From positions 1-60,868 of IMG/VR virus record IMGVR_UViG_3300035670_000219: 60,868 nt of DNA; one strand, written 5' to 3'. The DNA is from a virus. Taxonomy: Duplodnaviria > Caudoviricetes. The notes below the pieces were generated by a model. That model had not been told where the DNA came from. It was given only the letters and a program-made list of their open reading frames with translations, and ran no database searches. Numbering within the stretch: the first letter of the stretch is position 1; every line of letters begins with the position of its first letter. Made by a program: the position numbers and the translations under genes. Positions 3,820 through 35,985 of the stretch are shown here, one piece after another.

Positions 3820-4876
3820 CTCCCACTACATAACACATTTGTTCTTCATCATAATCGAGGTTGTTTTTTAGTAAATGAGGATGCTGTATCGTTGCTTTGA
3901 ACTGACTTTGAACGATGGGATTAAAAGGCAGATCAACAGAAGAATTAAACGAATGCATCAGTTTTTTAGGATCAAAATCAATAACAAACGGCATTGGCAT
4001 CGCTGGTGGATGTAAACGATTCCAAGAAGAAAATAAATGTAATGGATTAACACACTTTGGGTTGCGGCAAGCACGAGTAACAAATCCACTGCCTATATCC
4101 CCCCAGGTACATTGGTAAATTAATTTATGCGGCGTAACATTTGCGGTAACGGTATCCGAATAGTACGAACGGTAAGAAGGCATTTTTATGCGTTTATTTA
4201 TTGATAAGCGAATCTCCCAGCAATCCTGGAACTCACCAACACAAACTTTTGACCAAAGCTTGGAATATCGATTTCTATATTTTGGTTCCAAATAGTTGAG
4301 GTCAAACCCACAAATATTGCTATTTATTTTCTGTACGCAGTGATAACACCAATGTTTCGACTGATCTCGAATTGTATGACCATGTACACAAACGTAGCCA
4401 CGATAGTAACCATGCTTGGCAAGTTCTTCTTTTGATAAGTCTTCAATATTCGCAACAAAACGGAATTCAGTTGGTGAATTCAAAGAAGGTAACAGTTGCT
4501 TTTGATTTTTGTTTTGTCGTTTTGTAAAAGTGTTTTTAAGCTGAGAAGGGCCGTTACCTGTGGGAATGCGTTGTTTTAGTACCAATTCTTTTCTGTTGTC
4601 CCTGGGCATTTCGTTTGGATTTTTGTGAATGACATCCGCCGTTCCCGGATCTTCACCAGTACGCAAGTAGTACACCAAACGATGCGCGACGTAAGGAATG
4701 CGGTACAAGAAAACGGTGTAGTAACCGGTGCGTGGGTTGTAATTCCCCGCTGGCTCCCCGGCAGCATGCCGTGTTGACGATTGCTTCCACACCAAACCAC
4801 TGGGAGTGAGGTCAGATAGTTCCAGGAGGGACTGCAGCTCCCACAGAAGCGGAAGCTGACGGTACTCACGCGCCAT
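3809..4876 (-). CDS. protein with two HNH/His-Me finger-like domains and a Zn knuckle
   Basis: N-terminal TPSGLVW...GYY...AHRLVY..VIH resembles ORF 12582-13115; CVHGH...WCYHC; C-terminal CWE...HKLIY...CRNPKCVNPLHL. Confidence 0.6.
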   Translation of the reverse strand: MAREYRQLPLLWELQSLLELSDLTPSGLVWKQSSTRHAAGEPAGNYNPRTGYYTVFLYRIPYVAHRLVYYLRTGEDPGTADVIHKNPNEMPRDNRKELVLKQRIPTGNGPSQLKNTFTKRQNKNQKQLLPSLNSPTEFRFVANIEDLSKEELAKHGYYRGYVCVHGHTIRDQSKHWCYHCVQKINSNICGFDLNYLEPKYRNRYSKLWSKVCVGEFQDCWEIRLSINKRIKMPSYRSYYSDTVTANVTPHKLIYQCTWGDIGSGFVTRACRNPKCVNPLHLFSSWNRLHPPAMPMPFVIDFDPKKLMHSFNSSVDLPFNPIVQSQFKATIQHPHLLKNNLDYDEEQMCYVVGDGA

Positions 4877-12581: not shown

Positions 12582-13115
12582 TTAAATCTGATTGAGTCTT
12601 GCAAAGTCCCCATGAAGTTTTAATGCTTTTACGTTATATGCTTGTGCAGCTTCTAATTCGGTTTTGTAATATCCAATTGCACCTCTTTTTCCATTGCAGC
12701 ATATTGTAGCAATCCATTTTTGGTTTTTTGCACACCAATAAACCCCTTTATGCTTACTAGTTGCTTTTAATTTTGCTTTGCCTTGGTTCCATTTGTTTTC
12801 ATTTAAGTTTGCTAGCCGTAAATTATTGATACAATTATTTGCTTTGTTTAAATCAATATGATCAATTATATGTTGATCAATATTTGTTTTATGATGCATA
12901 AAATATATAACTCTATGCGCCATTAATATTTTATTTTTTCCATTTACTTTTAATCCAATAACCCAATACCCTTTTTTATTTAGGCAGCCAGCAAAGTCTC
13001 CTGCTTTTATTTTTTTACCGTTTGCTTTACACCAGCTAAGACCACTAGGTGATACCGGATTTATTTGAAGCAGATCTTCAAGAAAGGAAAGCGGCGGGAG
13101 CGGGGTAGTCTTCAT
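12582..13115 (-). CDS. HNH-AP2 homing endonuclease
   Basis: AHRVIY...IDHID.N..NN.INNLR.A; SKHKGV.W....KW.A.I...G.Y.TE.EAA.AYN. Confidence 0.9.
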   Translation of the reverse strand: MKTTPLPPLSFLEDLLQINPVSPSGLSWCKANGKKIKAGDFAGCLNKKGYWVIGLKVNGKNKILMAHRVIYFMHHKTNIDQHIIDHIDLNKANNCINNLRLANLNENKWNQGKAKLKATSKHKGVYWCAKNQKWIATICCNGKRGAIGYYKTELEAAQAYNVKALKLHGDFARLNQI

Positions 13116-13172
13116 GAACGGATCCTAGCAAATGATGGGCTAAAATACTAGAAGAACGAAAGAATAATCCTG

Positions 13173-13478
13173 ATGCCACAGGATGATAGCAAATACTCAA
13201 AACCTGAGTTACGTGAGCGGATTAAAGACCGTGTAATGGCCGGGTCCAAAGGTGGAAAGCCTGGCCAGTGGTCTGCGCGTAAGGCACAGCTTGTTGCGCA
13301 AGAGTATAAAGAAGCGGGTGGTAGTTACAAAGGTGGTAAAGGCGAGAAGCAGAAGTCCCTGGAGAAGTGGGGCAAAGAAAATTGGAGCACTCGAGAAGAA
13401 TACGAAAAGGGCTTGAAAGCTGCTAAAGTAGCCAAAAAAGCAAAGCAACGCAGTGCCCAGAAAAATTCACGGTCATAG
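13173..13478 (+). CDS. DUF5872-like protein, N-terminal half
   Basis: KPELRERIK..VMAGSKGGKPGQWSARKAQL.AQEYK.AGG.Y motif. Confidence 0.7.
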   Translation: MPQDDSKYSKPELRERIKDRVMAGSKGGKPGQWSARKAQLVAQEYKEAGGSYKGGKGEKQKSLEKWGKENWSTREEYEKGLKAAKVAKKAKQRSAQKNSRS

Positions 13479-13923
13479 CTTAGGCAAGCGGGGAGAAACA
13501 AAACGTTCAGCCACGTATAACAGCTGGCGCGCAATGTATGATCGTTGTTTTTTAAAGTCAAGCGTTAGTTACAAATATTATGGCGCTATTGGAATCACTG
13601 TTTGCGATCGGTGGCGTTGTTTTGAATTCTTTTTAGAAGATATGGGAGAAAGACCTGAAGGCTGTGTTCTTTCTCGGTTTAATGATCAAGGTAATTATCA
13701 ACCGGGCAACGTTACGTGGAAGCTGTTAGAAGAGAATTCTTCAGAAAAGAAATCAGCAGTTGGCAGCAAGGTTGGCAGCTCTAAATTAGTAGAGGATCAA
13801 ATTTTAAAAATTAGAAAACTTGGAAACAAAGGATATGGCATGCGTGAGCTGGGAAGAATGTTTAATGTAAATCACAAAACTATTTCGGCTATTATAAAAA
13901 GAAAGACCTGGAATCATATTTAA
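13453..13923 (+). CDS. HNH-like homing endonuclease with C-terminal HTH
   Basis: TYNSWRAM..RC......Y.YYG..GITVCDRW..FE.FLEDMGERP....L.R.N..GNY.PGN..W; SKL.E.QI..IR...F.V....IS.I...K.W.HI. Confidence 0.85.
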   Translation: MPRKIHGHSLGKRGETKRSATYNSWRAMYDRCFLKSSVSYKYYGAIGITVCDRWRCFEFFLEDMGERPEGCVLSRFNDQGNYQPGNVTWKLLEENSSEKKSAVGSKVGSSKLVEDQILKIRKLGNKGYGMRELGRMFNVNHKTISAIIKRKTWNHI

Positions 13924-13924
13924 A

Positions 13925-14134
13925 ATGGCCATTGACAAGGCTATACAAAAGGGATACACCAAGCGCTACCTACCCGAAAAGGCTTGGGCCTCACTGTCTA
14001 AAGAAGAACGGGAAGAGACTGATCAAAAGAAAAGAGCTGGCAGTCGCAAAGGTAAACAGTTCATCCCAAACACTGAGAAAGCAAAGAAAGCAGGTAAAGC
14101 TGCCCGTGCCGCCAAACGTTACAAGAATAAGTAG
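13925..14134 (+). CDS. DUF5872-like protein, C-terminal half
   Basis: KAIQ...TKRYLPEKAW..LS.EER..TD.KKR.GS..GKQF..NT motif. Confidence 0.65.
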   Translation: MAIDKAIQKGYTKRYLPEKAWASLSKEEREETDQKKRAGSRKGKQFIPNTEKAKKAGKAARAAKRYKNK

Positions 14135-14167
14135 TCCATTTATACTTAACAAAGATTCCGTATCCCC

Positions 14168-14317
14168 ATGGAAAAAAAGAAACCCGTGCCTCCTAAGAAG
14201 GCTGCTGTACCTGCCAAAGGGAAAGGTGGTGCATCTGCTAAGCAGACTGAAGCACGCAATAAGTTTAAAGAAATGATTGCCAAGAAGAAAGAAGCTGCTG
14301 CCAAAAAGAAAAAGTGA
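14168..14317 (+). CDS. small Lys/Ala-rich basic protein (49 aa)
   Basis: Hand-translated MEKKKPVPPKKAAVPAKGKGGASAKQTEARNKFKEMIAKKKEAAAKKKK*. Confidence 0.6.
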   Translation: MEKKKPVPPKKAAVPAKGKGGASAKQTEARNKFKEMIAKKKEAAAKKKK

Positions 14318-14340
14318 CACTCTTGTTGTGATATCCTGAC

Positions 14341-14458
14341 AGCGGAGCAATACCGCTCTAAGGGTAATAGTCGAAACCCTTTCCACGTTACAAATACGTG
14401 GTGCTCACAAGAGCGCGGAAGGAAGCTATGATCCCGGCATAGTACACCGGGATTTTTT
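14341..14458 (+). ncRNA. multi-hairpin structured leader ending in an intrinsic terminator
   Basis: Stems AGCGG/CCGCT, AAGGGT/ACCCTT, CCACGT/ACGTGG, GTGCTC/GAGCGC, then ATCCCGG/CCGGGAT plus a T-run directly before ATG 14459. Confidence 0.55.
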
Positions 14459-15130
14459 ATGACGACTCTTGTAGCCAATGTGCCGCCAGTGAAGGTGTGG
14501 ATTCGACGGGAATATTTGAGAGATCTGCATGATGGGTATGGGGAATACACGCCAGCATATTGGGTGACTTGTAAATCCTTGACTGGTAGAGCTTTATATT
14601 TTGAAGCGTATTTAACAGAGTTTGGATGCCTTTACGACAAGCTTCCCATCAGCGCATTCCTTGCGTGGGACCCTGATCATCCGGACAAACCAGAAGCACC
14701 TACCCCAGATTTGGAACTAACCGACCTGCAGTTCTGGAATGGATTTGATCATGGTCTGACGATCATCGAAAAGAATCTGATCTTTAACATGCAGTTCCAA
14801 GTTATGACACGCACGCAGGGTGTGATGACGGGCACATACTTATTTACAGTTGATAACTATCATCCACATAGAAACGAACCGGACTTTTACTTTGCGGAAT
14901 TTCCTGACGAGCATAAGTCCCACAACATTGTGGCTTTGGACAACGGTCAAATTGGCGCTTATCCCAACAATCGTTGTCGAATGGTTGATCCATCGCTCAC
15001 CAACCACGACCTAAAGACACCAGACTTTAAGGTATCGACCAGATACTTTGATGTAGAACACGCCCCCAAATGGGGACGGCTGGGTGAATGTGACGATTAC
15101 TTTTGGAAAACACCCAATGAATGTGTATAA
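14459..15130 (+). CDS. conserved phage protein of unknown function
   Basis: RREYL.D...GE, KS..GRA..FE, LYDKLPISAF, EHKS, LDNGQ..AYPNNR motifs. Confidence 0.7.
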   Translation: MTTLVANVPPVKVWIRREYLRDLHDGYGEYTPAYWVTCKSLTGRALYFEAYLTEFGCLYDKLPISAFLAWDPDHPDKPEAPTPDLELTDLQFWNGFDHGLTIIEKNLIFNMQFQVMTRTQGVMTGTYLFTVDNYHPHRNEPDFYFAEFPDEHKSHNIVALDNGQIGAYPNNRCRMVDPSLTNHDLKTPDFKVSTRYFDVEHAPKWGRLGECDDYFWKTPNECV

Positions 15131-15131
15131 T
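15126..15131 (+). promoter_or_regulatory. -10 box upstream of the RNA gene cluster
   Basis: TATAAT about 8 nt before the first structured element. Confidence 0.5.
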
Positions 15132-15138
15132 AAATGAG

Positions 15139-15335
15139 TTCCCCCTCTCTTTTGATGGGGCTCAGTTGGCCGCTGATGCGCCGGGGACCCACTTGGCAAG
15201 CGCGAAGGCCTGGGGTGACTCGCTAGGCAGATAGCCTAGAAGGAGAGCCAAGATAGAGGTGCAGTCACTGATTGGATACGCCTGGTTAACTCACAGCCCG
15301 ATTGTCGGTAAGCCAGTCACACTGCATCCATCTAT
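15139..15335 (+). ncRNA. unidentified structured RNA(s) upstream of the tRNA-like gene
   Basis: ATAGA-GGTGCAGT/ACTGCATC-TCTAT stem (15253-15335) with inner TGATTGG/CCAGTCA; CTAGGC/GCCTAG hairpin; no credible ORF. Confidence 0.5.
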
Positions 15336-15336
15336 A

Positions 15337-15407
15337 CGGTCGGTAGTCTATTGGTAAGGACAGGCAGACAATGCACAAGAAAGCTGGTTCGATTCCAGCA
15401 CGACCGA
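15337..15407 (+). tRNA. tRNA-like RNA with aberrant anticodon arm (possibly Val-GAC derived)
   Basis: Acceptor CGGTCG/CGACCG, D-arm GTCT/GGAC, T-arm GCTGG-TTCGATT-CCAGC; anticodon arm only GCA-GACAA-TGC. Confidence 0.65.
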
Positions 15408-15408
15408 T

Positions 15409-15533
15409 AGGGTACGACAAGGAACGTCGTATTAAATGAAGAGTCCCCTCGGCTGCATCGTAGATTCACCGTTAAGTTTGTGGTAACACAGCCCTAGCGA
15501 TGGTCGGTGAACGTAGGCAGACACTCTCGCCCT
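15409..15533 (+). ncRNA. unidentified structured RNA between tRNA genes
   Basis: AGGGT/GCCCT closure; TACGAC/GTCGTA, GAGT/ACTC, CTGC/GCAG, TTCACCG/CGGTGAA and TGTG/CACA stems. Confidence 0.5.
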
Positions 15534-15539
15534 CCCTTC

Positions 15540-15575
15540 CGGGGATTAGCTCAGCTTGGCCAGAGCGCATCTGCT
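15540..15575 (+). pseudogene. 5' half of an interrupted tRNA (Pro-like)
   Basis: CGGGGAT-TA-GCTC-AGCTTGGCCA-GAGC-GCATCTGCT: acceptor 5' strand, D-arm and anticodon-stem 5' strand. Confidence 0.8.
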
Positions 15576-16060
15576 AAACTGATCGAACCCCTCGGGGTGT
15601 AGTAGAAAAGTATCACGCCGTCTTTGGGAGGCGGAGGAGAAGGGGCAGTACCTTCCACCCCGATTTTTATGGTCTCAAAAATTTCTGATTACAAAAAACG
15701 TCGCCAAGAGATGATTGATTTTCTTGGCGGTGTTTGCGTTAAATGCGGATGTTCTGATTTGTTGCATATTGATCACATAGATCACAATTCCAAAAGTTTT
15801 AATATTAGCTGCAAGTGGTCAACCCATTGGGATATATTGGAGGCAGAGCTTAAAAAGTGTCAGTTACTTTGTAAACCCTGTCATCACGATAAGACTTTAG
15901 AAGAAGGAAGTTATGGGAAAGGCTGGACCAACGAAAAACGACAAACACACGGGACAGTTTGGTCGTATTCTAAATATGGATGTCGGTGTGATTTATGCAA
16001 AACAGCAAAAAGCCAGGCGAGCAAAAGGCAAAGAGAGTTAAAAAAACAAAAAGTTAAATA
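15576..16060 (+). mobile_element. 485-bp insert (tRNA-Pro + HNH) in a tRNA anticodon loop
   Basis: Bounded by two complementary tRNA halves. Confidence 0.7.
15593..15663 (+). tRNA. trnP: tRNA-Pro(TGG) with non-canonical D-arm and T-loop
   Basis: Acceptor CGGGGTG/CACCCCG-A; anticodon arm CCGTC-TTTGGGA-GGCGG; T-arm GAAGG-GGCAGTA-CCTTC. Confidence 0.82.
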
Positions 16061-16061
16061 G
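15669..16061 (+). CDS. HNH endonuclease
   Basis: LGGVCVKCG....LHIDHID...K.F......ELKKCQLLC..CH; ATG follows the inner tRNA after 5 nt (the track's 15624 start lies inside the tRNA). Confidence 0.88.
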   Translation: MVSKISDYKKRRQEMIDFLGGVCVKCGCSDLLHIDHIDHNSKSFNISCKWSTHWDILEAELKKCQLLCKPCHHDKTLEEGSYGKGWTNEKRQTHGTVWSYSKYGCRCDLCKTAKSQASKRQRELKKQKVK

Positions 16062-16096
16062 AGCAGATGCCGCAGGTTCGAATTCTGCATCTCCGA
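16061..16096 (+). pseudogene. 3' half of the interrupted tRNA (Pro-like)
   Basis: GA-GCAGATGCC-GCAGG-TTCGAAT-TCTGC-ATCTCCG-A; ATCTCCG pairs with CGGGGAT at 15540. Confidence 0.8.
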
Positions 16097-16149
16097 TATC
16101 AACAATTCCAATAAAAGCGTTATATTAATTACACGAATAAAAACTATGA

Positions 16150-16404
16150 ATGCCCTGGAGAGATTCCAAGGAACGCATCAACAAGAATCGACAGAAGCTT
16201 CTGGAGTACAAGAAGACTCTGCAGTGCGAGAAGTGTGGGTTGGATGATCACCGTGTTTTAGAGTTTCATCACATTGGAGATAAGGATAACAACATCTCCA
16301 GCATGGTGAACCATGGCTACGCCTGGAGCAGGGTGGAGGAAGAGATTAGTAAATGCATTCCGTTATGCTGTAATTGCCATAGGCTTGAGCACTGGGTTAA
16401 TTAA
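16150..16404 (+). CDS. small HNH endonuclease
   Basis: CEKCG.DD.RVLEFHH...K...IS.....EEISKC..LC.NCHR.EH. Confidence 0.85.
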   Translation: MPWRDSKERINKNRQKLLEYKKTLQCEKCGLDDHRVLEFHHIGDKDNNISSMVNHGYAWSRVEEEISKCIPLCCNCHRLEHWVN

Positions 16405-17285
16405 CGAGCATTGATTGGCTCAACTCGTCCATCTGGGTAGACTTGTAAGCGAATAGGATATGGCGTACCCACGCCCATTGTAAGTAATTTTGTTCCAGCT
16501 TGCACAGGGTTTAATATAGTTTTATTTTTGGTAGCATCCTGAAGTCTTTTATTGGTATCTTCATCAGTACCACCTTTGTCTTTTGGTGCATAGAAAAAGT
16601 CGTATTTGTCGGAAACAATGTAGGAATTGTCTTTTTGTGGTTCTGCCCAAAACTGCCCAAGACCAAAAGCAGTTTCTGTTCTACCATAATTTATGTTTCC
16701 GAAATCATTGTCGTATCGCACAGGTACATGGCCTTTGCCGAGACGCTGCAATGCACCGCTGTCTTGACCATATGCAGCGTACAAACGTTCCATTGCAGCC
16801 CCATCTGTCCAGTTTTTCATTCCTTGGATAGGCTCATGGCTTTTTGTAATTACATCGTAAATTTCACGACCAGTTTCTGGACCAATTTCAAGATCTTTAG
16901 TGCCAGCACCAGACATATAGCGAAGGAATAAATTTGTCCTTAGATCGTATTGATTGGCGACTTGTGGATTTGCGCTATAGTAGTTAGAAACTAATTTAAT
17001 ATCATTTGGATTTGCTTGTGCCAGACCCAAAGGACTTGCACCTGCTTTTGTTATTGCGTCGATAGCATTAAGAGGCTGCCAACTATTGCGAAATTGTCCA
17101 GGTCGTCCAGCCCATGGTTGCCCTTGCTTTGTATTAGTTGGTCCAAGATCTTGTTTCCATTTAGGTTGTTCTGGTTTTGGACGAGCGGCGCCACCAGGTA
17201 ATAAACCACCAAATAAGTTTTTATCTACTTGTCCGTAACTACGTTGTGCACGATTTAAAAATTGTTGAAAAAGTTCTCCCATCAA
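16401..17285 (-). CDS. hypothetical protein
   Basis: 294-aa ORF; LGQF...Y.V.DKYDF pattern. Confidence 0.6.
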   Translation of the reverse strand: MMGELFQQFLNRAQRSYGQVDKNLFGGLLPGGAARPKPEQPKWKQDLGPTNTKQGQPWAGRPGQFRNSWQPLNAIDAITKAGASPLGLAQANPNDIKLVSNYYSANPQVANQYDLRTNLFLRYMSGAGTKDLEIGPETGREIYDVITKSHEPIQGMKNWTDGAAMERLYAAYGQDSGALQRLGKGHVPVRYDNDFGNINYGRTETAFGLGQFWAEPQKDNSYIVSDKYDFFYAPKDKGGTDEDTNKRLQDATKNKTILNPVQAGTKLLTMGVGTPYPIRLQVYPDGRVEPINAR

Positions 17286-17845
17286 CCATTCCGCAACGTA
17301 GCTTTAATAAACCAAGCAGCCTTAAAGGCTTGACCACAGAGATCAGCAATGTAGTTCTGGATATCAATGGCACCCACCTTGGCAGCAATGGGCTCCAGCT
17401 TTTTGGTCTTCATGCCCAGCTCCTCTAGGTTTTTATAGTACACCGCAAGCATTTCGGTGCCCTTGTAGCTGGTAACGTGTTGGATACCAGGACCGGCATC
17501 AGCCAATCCCCTGGCGCACATGGGCATTAAGTAGTCCATGCTGCGAATGAACTCACTTAACGTATCGAACTGTTCCAGATGAGCTTCGTATTGGTCTTTA
17601 AGGAATGCATGCACCCCGAGGAAGTTAGACCCCTCGTAGTTCAGGTGAATGAGGTGGGACTGTGTTTGAAGTTCCTTGAGGTAGGAGGCAAGGGAGATGC
17701 ACTGCTGGATGAAGGCCCCGACATCACCGTTCTTTGATTTACCAGGAGCTTTAGGCTTGGCCTGCTGCTCTGGAGCCACCCCAGTATTGAGTGGTTCCAC
17801 CCCCATTTGGGGTGGTTGTTGCGTTTGAGGACCAGGAGTATACAT
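17282..17845 (-). CDS. Dps/ferritin-like protein
   Basis: H..H.NYEG.NF..VH.F...QY......D.L.E.IR and C-terminal K.AWF..A motifs. Confidence 0.8.
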   Translation of the reverse strand: MYTPGPQTQQPPQMGVEPLNTGVAPEQQAKPKAPGKSKNGDVGAFIQQCISLASYLKELQTQSHLIHLNYEGSNFLGVHAFLKDQYEAHLEQFDTLSEFIRSMDYLMPMCARGLADAGPGIQHVTSYKGTEMLAVYYKNLEELGMKTKKLEPIAAKVGAIDIQNYIADLCGQAFKAAWFIKATLRNG

Positions 17846-17871
17846 AGTTTTTTACCAGTTGTACCAGTCTA

Positions 17872-19191
17872 TCAAAGAGAAATTTCTTCCCAATCAAGGG
17901 CAGCATAAACATCATCGCCTGCTACCTTAGTTTCAACAAGGACACTAAATTCTTCTGGTGTACTTGTGAAGCTATCTCTTTGCAATTGGAATTGAAACAA
18001 CGCAGCTTTTAGAATATCAATGGGTGTATTGCCTTGTGTAGTAGAAGCAATGTAACCCTGAGCAAGCGTACTCCCACCACTGGTGCTTGTACCGCTTAAG
18101 TTATATTCAACTGCAGATCCACTACTGGTGGTATCCCATGATCCTCCAGAGGTAGTACATCCTTGTTGTAATTTCCAGTTAAAGAAACCATTGTTACCAA
18201 CACCCATGATACTGGTAGCAGTTGGAATAACAATTGCGTCTAAGCGATTTGGAGAAGCTTTTAAACGTAAAGAGATGACAGGATAAAAAACACCGGTAGC
18301 AGTTAGATCTCGTGGCGTAGAAATTGGTGTGCCAACCGCATTTTGTTTACCACGCAGTTCATAACCCCCTTCCGAAATAACAGTAGAGCAAACCTGTTTT
18401 AGCGTACTGGTTGACGCAGTTGTATTTAAGTTTTCAATTTCATAACGCAGCGGCAAAGAAGCTGTCGTTATATAAGTTGAAGCAATAAGATTTGCATGGT
18501 GGAACGAATGGCAGTGAATGAATTGACCACCGATTACAAACCCCATACGCACTGTTCCCAAGCCAAGCCATTCAATATCCATCCACAAGATTTGAGATTT
18601 AGAAATATCTAGTTCAATTCCAGAAGGTCCCTCTCCATCTAACTTATCAATATTCCAATCACTTTGATTAACAATAGTTTCAACAACAGATCCAGTAACA
18701 GAACTCCTTTCAACAAAACTAAGTGTTGAATTTTGCAACTGTAAGTAAAGACCGTTATTTGCGCCAAAATAACCAACCCGCTGACGCAGGTTGGTTTTAG
18801 CAGGAGCCATTGCAAACGTAGAAAGAACTAGAAGCGATTTCCCTGGTTGATAAGAGAACACTCGTTTGGTCTCTCGTTTTACAAAAGCACCAGATGTAGT
18901 TGTTACATTGAGTTCTACCAATCCTGCATTTGCATTAAACGTTGCATCACATCCGCTTGCAGCAGATGTTGCCCAAAGACCATTGTCGCTGTAGCGATGA
19001 CTGGAATCAAATAGAGTTAAAGGTTCTGATACACGTGCACGACCAAAAGCATCGCCCGCAGGCGAACCAGCCGTCGTAAAAGTAACTTGATATCCGCTTG
19101 CAGTAGTTACTTCTAATGGCTGACCGCTGCATGTCTGTACTTTTACTACTTCATACAAAGTGCTTTGTCCAGACTCTCTATATACAGGCAT
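17872..19191 (-). CDS. probable virion structural protein
   Basis: DAFGR.RVS.P.TLFDS, YQPGKS, DIEWLG.G.VR.GF, LPLRYEI motifs; Thr/Ser-rich. Confidence 0.65.
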   Translation of the reverse strand: MPVYRESGQSTLYEVVKVQTCSGQPLEVTTASGYQVTFTTAGSPAGDAFGRARVSEPLTLFDSSHRYSDNGLWATSAASGCDATFNANAGLVELNVTTTSGAFVKRETKRVFSYQPGKSLLVLSTFAMAPAKTNLRQRVGYFGANNGLYLQLQNSTLSFVERSSVTGSVVETIVNQSDWNIDKLDGEGPSGIELDISKSQILWMDIEWLGLGTVRMGFVIGGQFIHCHSFHHANLIASTYITTASLPLRYEIENLNTTASTSTLKQVCSTVISEGGYELRGKQNAVGTPISTPRDLTATGVFYPVISLRLKASPNRLDAIVIPTATSIMGVGNNGFFNWKLQQGCTTSGGSWDTTSSGSAVEYNLSGTSTSGGSTLAQGYIASTTQGNTPIDILKAALFQFQLQRDSFTSTPEEFSVLVETKVAGDDVYAALDWEEISL

Positions 19192-35899: not shown

Positions 35900-35985
35900 T
35901 GGTGCGAACAGAGAGGATCGAACTCTCACGACCAAAGGTCAACGGATTTTAAGTCCGTAGCGTCTACCTATTCCGCCATGTTCGC
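35900..35985 (-). tRNA. trnL: tRNA-Leu(TAA), intron-less, CCA encoded
   Basis: GCGAACA...ACGGA-CTTAAAA-TCCGT, long variable arm, GAGAG-TTCGATC-CTCTC-TGTTCGC-ACCA. Confidence 0.95.

Follow-up and report, generated by a model that had tools for sequence, protein, structure and literature searches.

A phage tRNA-Pro gene split in its anticodon loop by a probable homing cassette that carries a second tRNA-Pro(UGG) gene

Organization of the split tRNA-Pro locus

The stretch of DNA analyzed here, hereafter called the window, is the whole 60,868-base IMG/VR virus record IMGVR_UViG_3300035670_000219 (Caudoviricetes), whose completeness is estimated at 77%. Among deposited genomes, this cyanophage-like virus comes closest to S-EIVl, a freshwater Synechococcus phage, the nucleotide identity being 75% across the gene located at 14459-15130 (annotated as PurM in S-EIVl and matching a PHROG labelled ferredoxin). 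Downstream of this gene, a transfer RNA (tRNA) gene for proline is broken in its anticodon loop by an insert that holds a complete second tRNA-Pro gene followed by a gene encoding an HNH endonuclease. The initial annotation of this locus proposed that the insert is a homing cassette that does not splice, destroys its target tRNA gene and carries a replacement for it. The features of the locus are the following:

15540-15575, plus strand: 5′ half of the outer tRNA-Pro(UGG) gene (type A), tRNA positions 1-32, recognized from its sequence, alignment with intact alleles, ARAGORN -i and cofolding
15576-15592, plus strand: 17-nt spacer AAACTGATCGAACCCCT, left end of the cassette, kept in the 486-nt cassette subfamily (window, L004 and L128)
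15593-15663, plus strand: inner tRNA-Pro(UGG) gene (type B), recognized from Rfam (37.5 bits), ARAGORN -mt and covariation
15669-16061, plus strand: HNH endonuclease gene, 130 aa and TAG stop codon (phrog_4234, E 8.8e-33)
16062-16096, plus strand: 3′ half of the outer tRNA-Pro(UGG) gene (type A), tRNA positions 38-73, aligned with the last 36 nt of intact alleles

The 5′ half comprises the acceptor strand CGGGGAT, the D-arm, the 5′ strand of the anticodon stem (TCTGC) and T32, and aligns with the first 33 nt of intact alleles from 12 contigs. The 3′ half comprises A38, the 3′ strand of the anticodon stem (GCAGA), the variable loop TGCC, the T-arm, the acceptor strand ATCTCCG and A73. Comparison with the intact alleles indicates that loop nucleotides 33-36/37 (TTGG or TTGGG) have been replaced by 485 or 486 nt, depending on whether G37 is considered as kept, so that the length of 485 nt initially given is one of two admissible values. 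Counted from 15576 to 16061, the insert has 486 nt and consists of the spacer, the type B tRNA gene, 5 nt and the HNH gene. The coordinates of the 5′ half were correct from the outset, but the 3′ half begins at 16062 and not one base earlier: G16061 is the last base of the TAG stop codon and probably the retained old G37. Likewise, the anticodon had rightly been described as missing, but the loop itself is partly kept (T32, A38 and probably G37). The position of the inner tRNA gene, its T-loop GGCAGTA and the 5-nt gap (TTTTT, 15664-15668) that separates it from the HNH start codon at 15669 are exactly as first described.

Neither tRNA gene is seen by ARAGORN with default settings or by Rfam at the gathering threshold, the sole call in the window being a tRNA-Leu gene at 35900-35985 on the minus strand. 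An Rfam scan of the whole window in E-value mode also misses the inner tRNA, the filters being stricter on long input. With the -i option, ARAGORN force-fits the outer pieces as a 74-nt tRNA with a 483-nt intron and makes a Leu(aag) anticodon from bases of the insert. A scan for sigma-70 promoters and terminators over 15000-16600 was uninformative (three promoter-like sequences versus 2.5 expected and one terminator-like sequence versus 1.3 expected), and the sole RNA sequencing run found covers 15342-15376 and 16201-16362, outside the split gene.

A protein-guided scan of IMG/VR revealed the same nested layout in two other contigs, L004 (HNH protein 92% identical) and L005 (68% identical). 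The outer halves of L004 are fully canonical (CGGGGAT TA GCGC AGTTTGGTA GCGC A TCTGC T, insert, A GCAGA GGGTC GCAGG TTCGAAT CCTGC ATCTCCG A) and, save one base of the T-loop, are letter for letter the 33 and 36 nt of uninterrupted tRNA-Pro genes; those of the window are 83% (5′) and 89% (3′) identical to them. On this alignment, the outer halves can be recognized as the two parts of one canonical phage tRNA-Pro(UGG) gene rather than as a chance resemblance to a tRNA, in agreement with the initial assignment of both halves to a single gene. The outer gene can be regarded as dead, because the insert removes its anticodon. Two other origins were considered and rejected. Two independent deletions in two tRNA gene copies would be unparsimonious, the break points being complementary to the nucleotide. 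As for a transfer-messenger RNA (tmRNA), ARAGORN finds none and the ends show identity features of proline, not of alanine.

The D- and T-arms of the outer gene were initially considered as intact, which is only partly right since the window differs from every relative in the D-arm, variable loop and T-stem: G12 is replaced by T, the D-arm has gained 3 nt, the variable loop is shortened to 4 nt and G53 faces U61. The 9-bp pairing of GCATCTGCT with AGCAGATGC on both sides of the break does exist in the window, but the relatives pair only the 5-bp anticodon stem and T32-A38, and the lengthening of this helix from 6 to 9 bp is a side effect of the window-specific changes. Because a contig from the public sequencing run X4, which differs from the window by only 3 letters over 15508-16067, has a canonical D-arm (C15560T and a 3-nt deletion at 15561), these changes can be considered as a recent decay in this lineage. 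As its own halves have decayed, the phage can evidently do without them. In IMG/VR, no match was obtained with exact patterns of 27 and 30 nt taken from the window halves because these halves have diverged; a pattern from the canonical L004 half succeeded.

This decay also bears on the alternative raised by the initial annotation, a processing scaffold in which the halves still act at the RNA level. In a functional composite RNA somewhat similar to tmRNA, the halves, paired in the transcript by the acceptor stem, the T-arm and a helix of 6-9 bp, would be a handle by which RNase P and RNase Z delimit and protect the ends of the HNH message and of the inner tRNA, a role that would be compatible with homing. 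Indeed, the halves cofold into a cloverleaf devoid of anticodon loop, with -34.1 kcal/mol for the window (a value reached by 1 of 200 shuffles) and -29.9 kcal/mol for L004 (3 of 200). Moreover, they are highly conserved in most copies, the helix is lengthened in the window, and the messages of T4 SegB and of the T5 HNH enzymes are presumed to be shaped by tRNA processing (PMC2330249). However, such pairing is expected anyway from the origin of both halves in one tRNA gene, and copies of the L005 type carry two stem mismatches, 18 of 200 shuffles folding as well as they do. Furthermore, the window has lost the G53-C61 pair and has an altered D-arm, which suggests relaxed constraint, and the decay of its halves argues against an essential scaffold role. 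Overall, we consider this composite RNA as improbable.

The inner gene belongs to another structural type. Type B has a C1-G72 pair, A73, an anticodon loop TTTGGGA, a D-loop AAAAGTA devoid of G18-G19 and a T-loop GGCAGTA devoid of T54-Psi55, and does not encode CCA. With laxer filters, it reaches 37.5 bits with the Rfam tRNA model, whose gathering score is 29, and ARAGORN -mt calls it Pro(tgg). The combination of C1-G72 and A73, which was attributed to both tRNAs from the beginning, is indeed present in both; along with the UGG anticodon, these are identity elements for prolyl-tRNA synthetase. An 18-nt D-arm pattern retrieved 21 loci from IMG/VR: two cassette contigs, two chance matches and 17 free-standing copies located in several genomic contexts. 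Among the nine distinct type B sequences, all of which keep the UGG anticodon, C1-G72 and A73, compensatory changes affect 6 of 21 pairs and 94.7% of the cells are paired, values that are reached by none of 500 shuffles. The acceptor varies (CGGGGTG, CGGGATG and CGGAGCG) as does the anticodon stem (CCGTC/GGCGG, CTGCT/AGCAG and TTGCG/CGCAA); the D-loop AAAAGTA and the T-loop GGC(A/G)GTA are invariant or nearly so. Because the stems vary with compensatory pairs while the loops are kept, type B has to be considered as a real and selected tRNA with a predicted proline identity (UGG anticodon), although the canonical elbow (G18-G19; T54-Psi55-C56) was not found and default ARAGORN misses the gene.

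The term divergent, initially applied to the inner tRNA, is appropriate in that the molecule is atypical, but it is not a one-off copy: it is a widespread phage type, free-standing in 17 other contigs, that can also occupy this locus alone. In L032, type B is found by itself at the position held by type A in L023, the flanks of these two loci agreeing as far as the ends of the tRNA gene, and a contig of run X1 has the same arrangement as L032. Type B is predicted to be the sole working tRNA-Pro of the phage studied here and to be sufficient alone in other phages. Its bacterial source was not found, a search for the exact D-arm 18-mer in 185,579 prokaryote genomes giving two chance matches without any tRNA. 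Type B is common in viral contigs (L025-L043), where both default ARAGORN and the default filters of Rfam miss it. Standard finders thus overlook a phage tRNA-Pro type that is abundant and whose elbow is non-canonical; therefore, phage tRNA inventories, and the arguments about codon supply or anti-defence built on them, are incomplete. The T-arm of type B also lacks the motif GGTTCRANTCC read by endonucleases of the SegB type, which, speculatively, could be a reason why type B exists.

The location of the insert in the anticodon loop is reminiscent of the group I introns found in bacterial tRNA genes and, furthermore, the last base would be U in the 5′ exon of such an intron and is G in the insert. 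Could the insert be a group I, group II or protein-spliced intron whose removal restores the outer tRNA? The absence of an intron core reported initially is confirmed by three Rfam scans (whole window, 13000-19000 and 15530-16110), in which no intron family was found at E<=10. Only about 95 nt of the insert are non-coding, 71 of which are the inner tRNA, and the ends of the insert are not kept between cassette subfamilies beyond AA... and ...TA(G/AG). Above all, splicing could not restore an anticodon because nucleotides 33-36/37 are absent from both halves: once joined, these leave a loop of 2-3 nt without TTGG(G). An intron is thus extremely improbable.

Empty sites and recurrence of the cassette

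A 25-nt pattern from the 5′ half of L004 identified 15 loci, which correspond to two interrupted contigs, one unrelated tRNA-Pro gene and 12 uninterrupted genes of allele A1. The latter read TCTGC TTTGGGA GCAGA or the covarying ATTGC TTTGGGA GCAAT and are called tRNA-Pro(tgg) by ARAGORN. Six other uninterrupted genes belong to allele A3 (L133-L138, one with an aberrant 3′ part) and two are A2-like (L140 and L141). The uninterrupted CTGCTTTGGGAGCAG alleles predicted by the initial annotation were thus found in 20 related viral contigs, including the syntenic L023. Positions 15250-15575 of the window correspond to 1173-1451 of L023, and 16061-16406 to 1456-1802. L023 has only 4 nt where the window has 485, and the flank past the 3′ half continues as in the window. 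The aberrant gene, in L138 (about 4309-4381), is a hybrid tRNA-Pro with an A3-type 5′ part through the T-loop and an A1-type 3′ end, so that its T-stem and acceptor are unpaired; it looks like a recombination junction inside the T-loop.

A search with 26 nt taken from the beginning of the HNH gene retrieved nine metagenome contigs. In all nine, the HNH gene is preceded, 5 nt upstream, by type B, and both are located between T32 and G37/A38 of a split tRNA-Pro gene. With the window and the two IMG/VR contigs, the same loop position is therefore occupied in 12 of 12 contigs carrying this HNH gene. Two cassette subfamilies were distinguished: one of 486 nt with an HNH protein of 130 aa (window, L004 and L128) and one of 459 nt with an HNH protein of 120 aa (the nine others), whose spacer is different and 18 nt long. 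The outer allele is A1 (CGGGGAT) in ten contigs, A2 (CGGGATA) in L124 and A3 (CGAGATG, with another D-loop and T-stem) in L128. The uninterrupted gene that corresponds to L128 is found in L133, whose flanks and ACTGC/GCAGT stem match the 3′ half of L128. No blastn match to the cassette DNA was found in 50,697 deposited phage genomes.

Two comparisons show that the cassette is more alike between genomes than its surroundings, as expected from lateral spread:

L004 versus L128: cassette 99.4% identical, 5′ half 84.8%, 3′ half 86.1%, flanks 92% and 90%
L130 versus L132: cassette 99.6% identical, halves 100% and 100%, flanks 51% and 33%

Presence or absence of the cassette is polymorphic at a precise site, with 20 uninterrupted versus 12 interrupted alleles and a single junction. 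In the trees of the upstream gene and of the 270 nt downstream, the three states of the locus (A, B and split) are interspersed, and the nearest neighbor of the window is in both cases the intact L023. One group of the downstream tree, with a support of 94/97, brings together the window, L023 (A), L004 (split) and L032 (B).

These data can be confronted with the view that the insert is a passive relic, i.e., one old illegitimate insertion of a tRNA and an HNH gene, inherited vertically and moved by general phage recombination, whose HNH protein would act elsewhere or play another role and would not target the anticodon region of type A. Several facts fit with this view. Many HNH relatives simply sit between tRNA genes, the outer halves of the window are decaying, and most split genes of the 459-nt subfamily share one combination of halves, as common descent predicts. 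However, cassettes that are 99.4-99.6% identical lie in outer alleles about 85% identical and in unrelated flanks, and the junction is identical in three outer alleles. The HNH gene is also under strong purifying selection (see below). Furthermore, the halves are about 30 times more conserved than the synonymous sites of the HNH gene: between L005 and L131, synonymous divergence (dS) of the HNH gene is 0.46, yet only 1 of 69 half positions differs. This conservation would fit with repeated entry into intact, selected genes or with selection on the halves as homology arms. A passive relic is therefore unlikely in our opinion.

The split genes also differ from the empty ones by their anticodon stem, which is mismatched in 9 of the 12 split genes versus none of the 20 uninterrupted ones. 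Their 5′ strand is always (T/A)CTGC, whereas their 3′ strand is GCAGA (three genes), GCAAT (seven), GCAGT (one) or GCGTT (one). Such an asymmetry, which resembles a co-conversion of flanking markers with a donor-like 5′ strand, is expected if a few nucleotides located on the left of the insertion travel with the cassette and the right half comes from the recipient. The cut would then lie at the insertion point or 5′ of it.

HNH gene, proposed homing and known precedents

Besides phrog_4234, annotated as HNH endonuclease, 12 further HNH-annotated PHROGs are found among the 14 matched by the open reading frame (ORF). Ten residues are invariant in 43 relatives of the protein (C23, C26, H36, C68, H72, H94, G95, C105, C107 and C110), D35 is nearly invariant in these relatives and C71 is invariant in the five-sequence alignment A2. 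The catalytic D-H, the distal metal-binding histidine and the two CxxC pairs are all present in the protein of the window. Its AlphaFold2 model (predicted local distance difference test score, pLDDT, 81.2) was inspected for a beta-beta-alpha metal fold and shows strands at 32-36 and 64-68, then a helix at 69-79. The weak top rows obtained with Foldseek are mostly HNH nucleases (Cas-HNH, Cap5, T4 endonuclease VII and T5 SciA), and a profile search of the PDB sequences with the HNH alignment gave chance-level rows alone (E 0.21 and 0.48). The gene is under purifying selection: its ORF is intact in 12 of 12 cassette copies and the pairwise ratio of nonsynonymous to synonymous divergence (dN/dS) ranges from 0.01 to 0.24. 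The value of dS reaches 0.46 inside the 459-nt subfamily and exceeds 1 when the two subfamilies are compared.

The family was surveyed in the best 80 of 220 IMG/VR relatives (L044-L123). At least one tRNA gene called by ARAGORN lies within the flanks of up to 1.5 kb in 56 of these 80 loci, and in 28 of them a tRNA gene on the same strand starts within 30 nt of the stop codon of the HNH ORF. The offset is exactly -10 in 11 loci, the stop codon being a TAG formed by tRNA positions 8-10, and -15 in four more. Overlap of the ORF with the 5′ end of a downstream tRNA gene thus seems to be a habit of this HNH family. The closest relative in a cultured phage is gp109 of Stenotrophomonas phage Marzo (MZ326868.1; 55% identity over 98% of the protein), whose gene overlaps by its 3′ end a tRNA-Pro(UGG) gene over 24 nt. 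Unlike the cassette, this tRNA-Pro gene is intact and canonical, no tRNA gene is found directly upstream of the HNH gene and there is no nesting.

Two other groups of relatives have peculiar contacts with tRNA genes. In L046 and L047 (about 1440-1948), which along with Marzo are among the nearest relatives of the cassette HNH, an HNH ORF with 48% identity reads 42 nt into a complete tRNA-Pro(UGG) gene and stops just past the anticodon loop. About 35 nt upstream of this ORF lies a 5′ fragment resembling tRNA-Pro, made up of the D-arm and the anticodon-stem 5′ strand; no 3′ partner of this fragment was found in the 3.4-kb locus of L046. In L006-L008 (about 2310-2895), a tRNA-Lys(UUU) gene is followed by a 48%-identical HNH ORF reading through a tRNA 3′ fragment (T-arm and acceptor CGGGTTC). 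The complementary sequence GGACCCG-GA-GCTC lies just upstream of the tRNA-Lys gene, and this may be a second nested tRNA. The region 2100-3300 of L006 has no blastn match among deposited phages.

Taken together, these results make it probable that the insert is a non-splicing, free-standing homing-endonuclease cassette that carries a rescue tRNA. The interpretation given initially is thus strengthened by the empty alleles, the recurrent site in three outer alleles, the selection on the HNH gene and the covariation in the rescue tRNA. The anatomy of the locus, the empty alleles, the use of one site in different alleles and contexts, and selection on HNH and type B are direct observations. Homing endonucleases spread by cutting uninterrupted alleles. 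From this knowledge and from the precedent of SegB (PMC2330249), we infer as follows where the HNH protein would cleave, how homing would proceed and why type B would be immune. During a mixed infection, the HNH protein would cut the uninterrupted type A gene of a competitor phage in the anticodon loop or just 5′ of it. The break would then be repaired from the cassette-bearing genome, the two tRNA halves serving as homology arms, and the cassette would be copied in along with a few nucleotides of the 5′ arm. The split allele would be immune because its target is broken. The type B gene would not be a target: it has the same 7-nt anticodon loop as type A, but would be spared because its anticodon stem differs at all 10 positions.

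Several points weigh against this homing cassette. The place of cleavage, the gene targeted and the resistance of type B are deduced from sequences, and this reading does not account for the first formation of the cassette. Assignment of the protein to the HNH endonucleases comes from PHROGs: no Pfam match was found at E<=0.01, and Foldseek gave no match of the model to the PDB at E<=0.001. There are about ten distinct cassette copies rather than 12, as L125, L126 and L129 are identical over the stretch compared, and the metagenome and IMG/VR contigs may overlap in origin. Support in the flank trees is mostly weak, with one starred branch each. Seven of the nine mismatched split genes share TCTGC/GCAAT, perhaps as the result of one event, which reduces the number of independent chimeric events to about three. 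Finally, no contig from four public sequencing runs joins 15575 to 16062, so that these samples yielded no empty allele with exactly the flanks of the window, although contigs cannot show absence.

A broader reading, which we regard as possible but put forward only tentatively, would be that of a natural home-and-rescue gene drive among phages, combining a tRNA-Pro(UGG)-specialized HNH protein, a recoded tRNA, halves with a dual role and an arms race. This HNH lineage would destroy the canonical gene of competitors and would spread because it carries a structurally recoded tRNA-Pro along. The different stems and the non-canonical elbow would hide the type B gene from this HNH protein and from readers of GGTTCRANTCC such as SegB, and perhaps also from tRNA-targeting defences of the host. 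The halves would serve both as DNA homology arms and as RNase P/Z handles from which the rescue tRNA and the HNH message are released. The three states of the locus (A, B alone, and A split by type B and HNH) would then illustrate different moments of a continuing arms race for a single tRNA gene.

To persist, homing endonuclease genes are considered either to hide in introns or inteins or to be located between genes. I-Ssp6803I, in a tRNA-fMet gene, is an example of a group I intron endonuclease found in an anticodon loop. There is a third solution, documented by a single case, where the pieces of the split protein come together again; the homing cassette described here would illustrate a fourth, i.e., to kill the target gene and to carry its substitute. 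As in the group I introns of bacterial tRNA genes, an endonuclease-encoding mobile element is located in the anticodon loop (PMC3984707), but the cassette has no ribozyme, the anticodon is not kept and no splicing is possible. The third solution corresponds to MobE in nrdA of Aeromonas phage Aeh1, where a free-standing HNH gene likewise splits a conserved gene without any intron or intein (PMC3045599). The pieces of the Aeh1 protein are reported to reassemble and the gene works, whereas the tRNA gene split by the cassette cannot work and it is the cargo that would rescue the function.

The cassette also resembles SegB of T4 and the HNH enzymes F-TflI/II of T5, which are encoded by free-standing endonuclease genes located among phage tRNA genes (PMC2330249). 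SegB is a GIY-YIG homing endonuclease encoded in a tRNA cluster. It recognizes the T-loop motif GGTTCRANTCC, cuts tRNA genes of related phages and drives the inheritance of itself and of neighboring tRNA genes; its message is part of a tRNA precursor that is cut at the adjacent tRNA. SegB homologues are reported to be enriched near tRNAs (PMC13096335). The HNH ORF of the cassette also abuts tRNA sequence, and does so at both ends. However, SegB belongs to another nuclease family and its gene lies between intact tRNA genes, none of which is destroyed. In contrast, the cassette is inside a tRNA gene, deletes its anticodon and supplies a substitute with the same anticodon.

If our interpretation is correct, the cassette would follow, in nature and on a tRNA, the logic of engineered home-and-rescue and cleave-and-rescue drives. 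In synthetic HomeR drives (PMC7968924), a nuclease element is likewise placed in or aimed at a needed gene and carries a recoded, cut-resistant copy of it; however, these drives are engineered with Cas9 in diploid insects, whereas the cassette is natural and protein-guided, is found in phage populations and would rescue a tRNA gene. Overall, free-standing homing endonuclease genes in phage tRNA regions and a non-splicing insertion inside a gene (Aeh1 nrdA) are already known. The novelty is the combination of an insertion in the anticodon loop, with loss of the anticodon, and of a carried tRNA that has the same anticodon and another structural type. No description of a split-tRNA rescue cassette was found in the open-access literature, a coverage that leaves out subscription journals and supplements. 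The cassette, with about ten variants known, 20 alleles that lack it and a locus occurring in three states, offers a clean natural system for studying target recognition by small HNH proteins, co-conversion tracts and the turnover of phage tRNA genes.

Neighboring elements

Other features were found around the split gene, outside the cassette:

15337-15407, plus strand: tRNA-like element without a proper anticodon arm (Rfam tRNA 34.2 bits, anticodon arm unaligned)
15409-15532, plus strand: conserved structured RNA motif that immediately precedes the tRNA-Pro site (core of 81 nt, aligned across 10 loci)
16150-16404, plus strand: second, resident HNH gene, 84 aa, just downstream of the tRNA-Pro site (phrog_2255, E 1.7e-20)

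The structured RNA motif shows compensatory changes in 7 of 21 predicted pairs and matches no Rfam family at E<=10. In the window, it includes an optional insert of 43 nt (about 15465-15507), and versions devoid of these 43 nt were found in runs X4 and X5. At least 15 distinct loci, and also Synechococcus phage S-CREM1, have this motif immediately before the tRNA-Pro site.

The tRNA-like element has a good acceptor, D-arm and T-arm, its anticodon arm being replaced by a mini-hairpin of 3 bp and 5 nt (GCA-GACAA-TGC). Other copies exist in the Synechococcus phages DSL-LC03 and S-CREM1, in the latter without annotation between tRNA-Met and tRNA-Leu, as well as in L005, L023 and L137. Among these copies, the sequences of the acceptor and T-stem have changed while their pairing is kept, and the copy of a relative is found in a metatranscriptome contig (run X20).

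Another tRNA-like sequence, which is not called by ARAGORN, directly follows the tRNA-Pro site in L005 (2890-2975) and also in L010, L016, L027 and L033; its acceptor is CACCTGG/CCAGGTG and its T-arm GTAGG TTCGACT CCTAC. A stretch homologous to the resident HNH gene is present in 19 loci that include all three states of the site (A, B and split). Lastly, about 2.5 kb upstream of the split gene, positions 12585-13115 (minus strand) encode a protein of 177 aa in which Pfam recognizes the domains HNH_3 (E 2e-07) and AP2 (E 1e-06), and which is likely another homing endonuclease.

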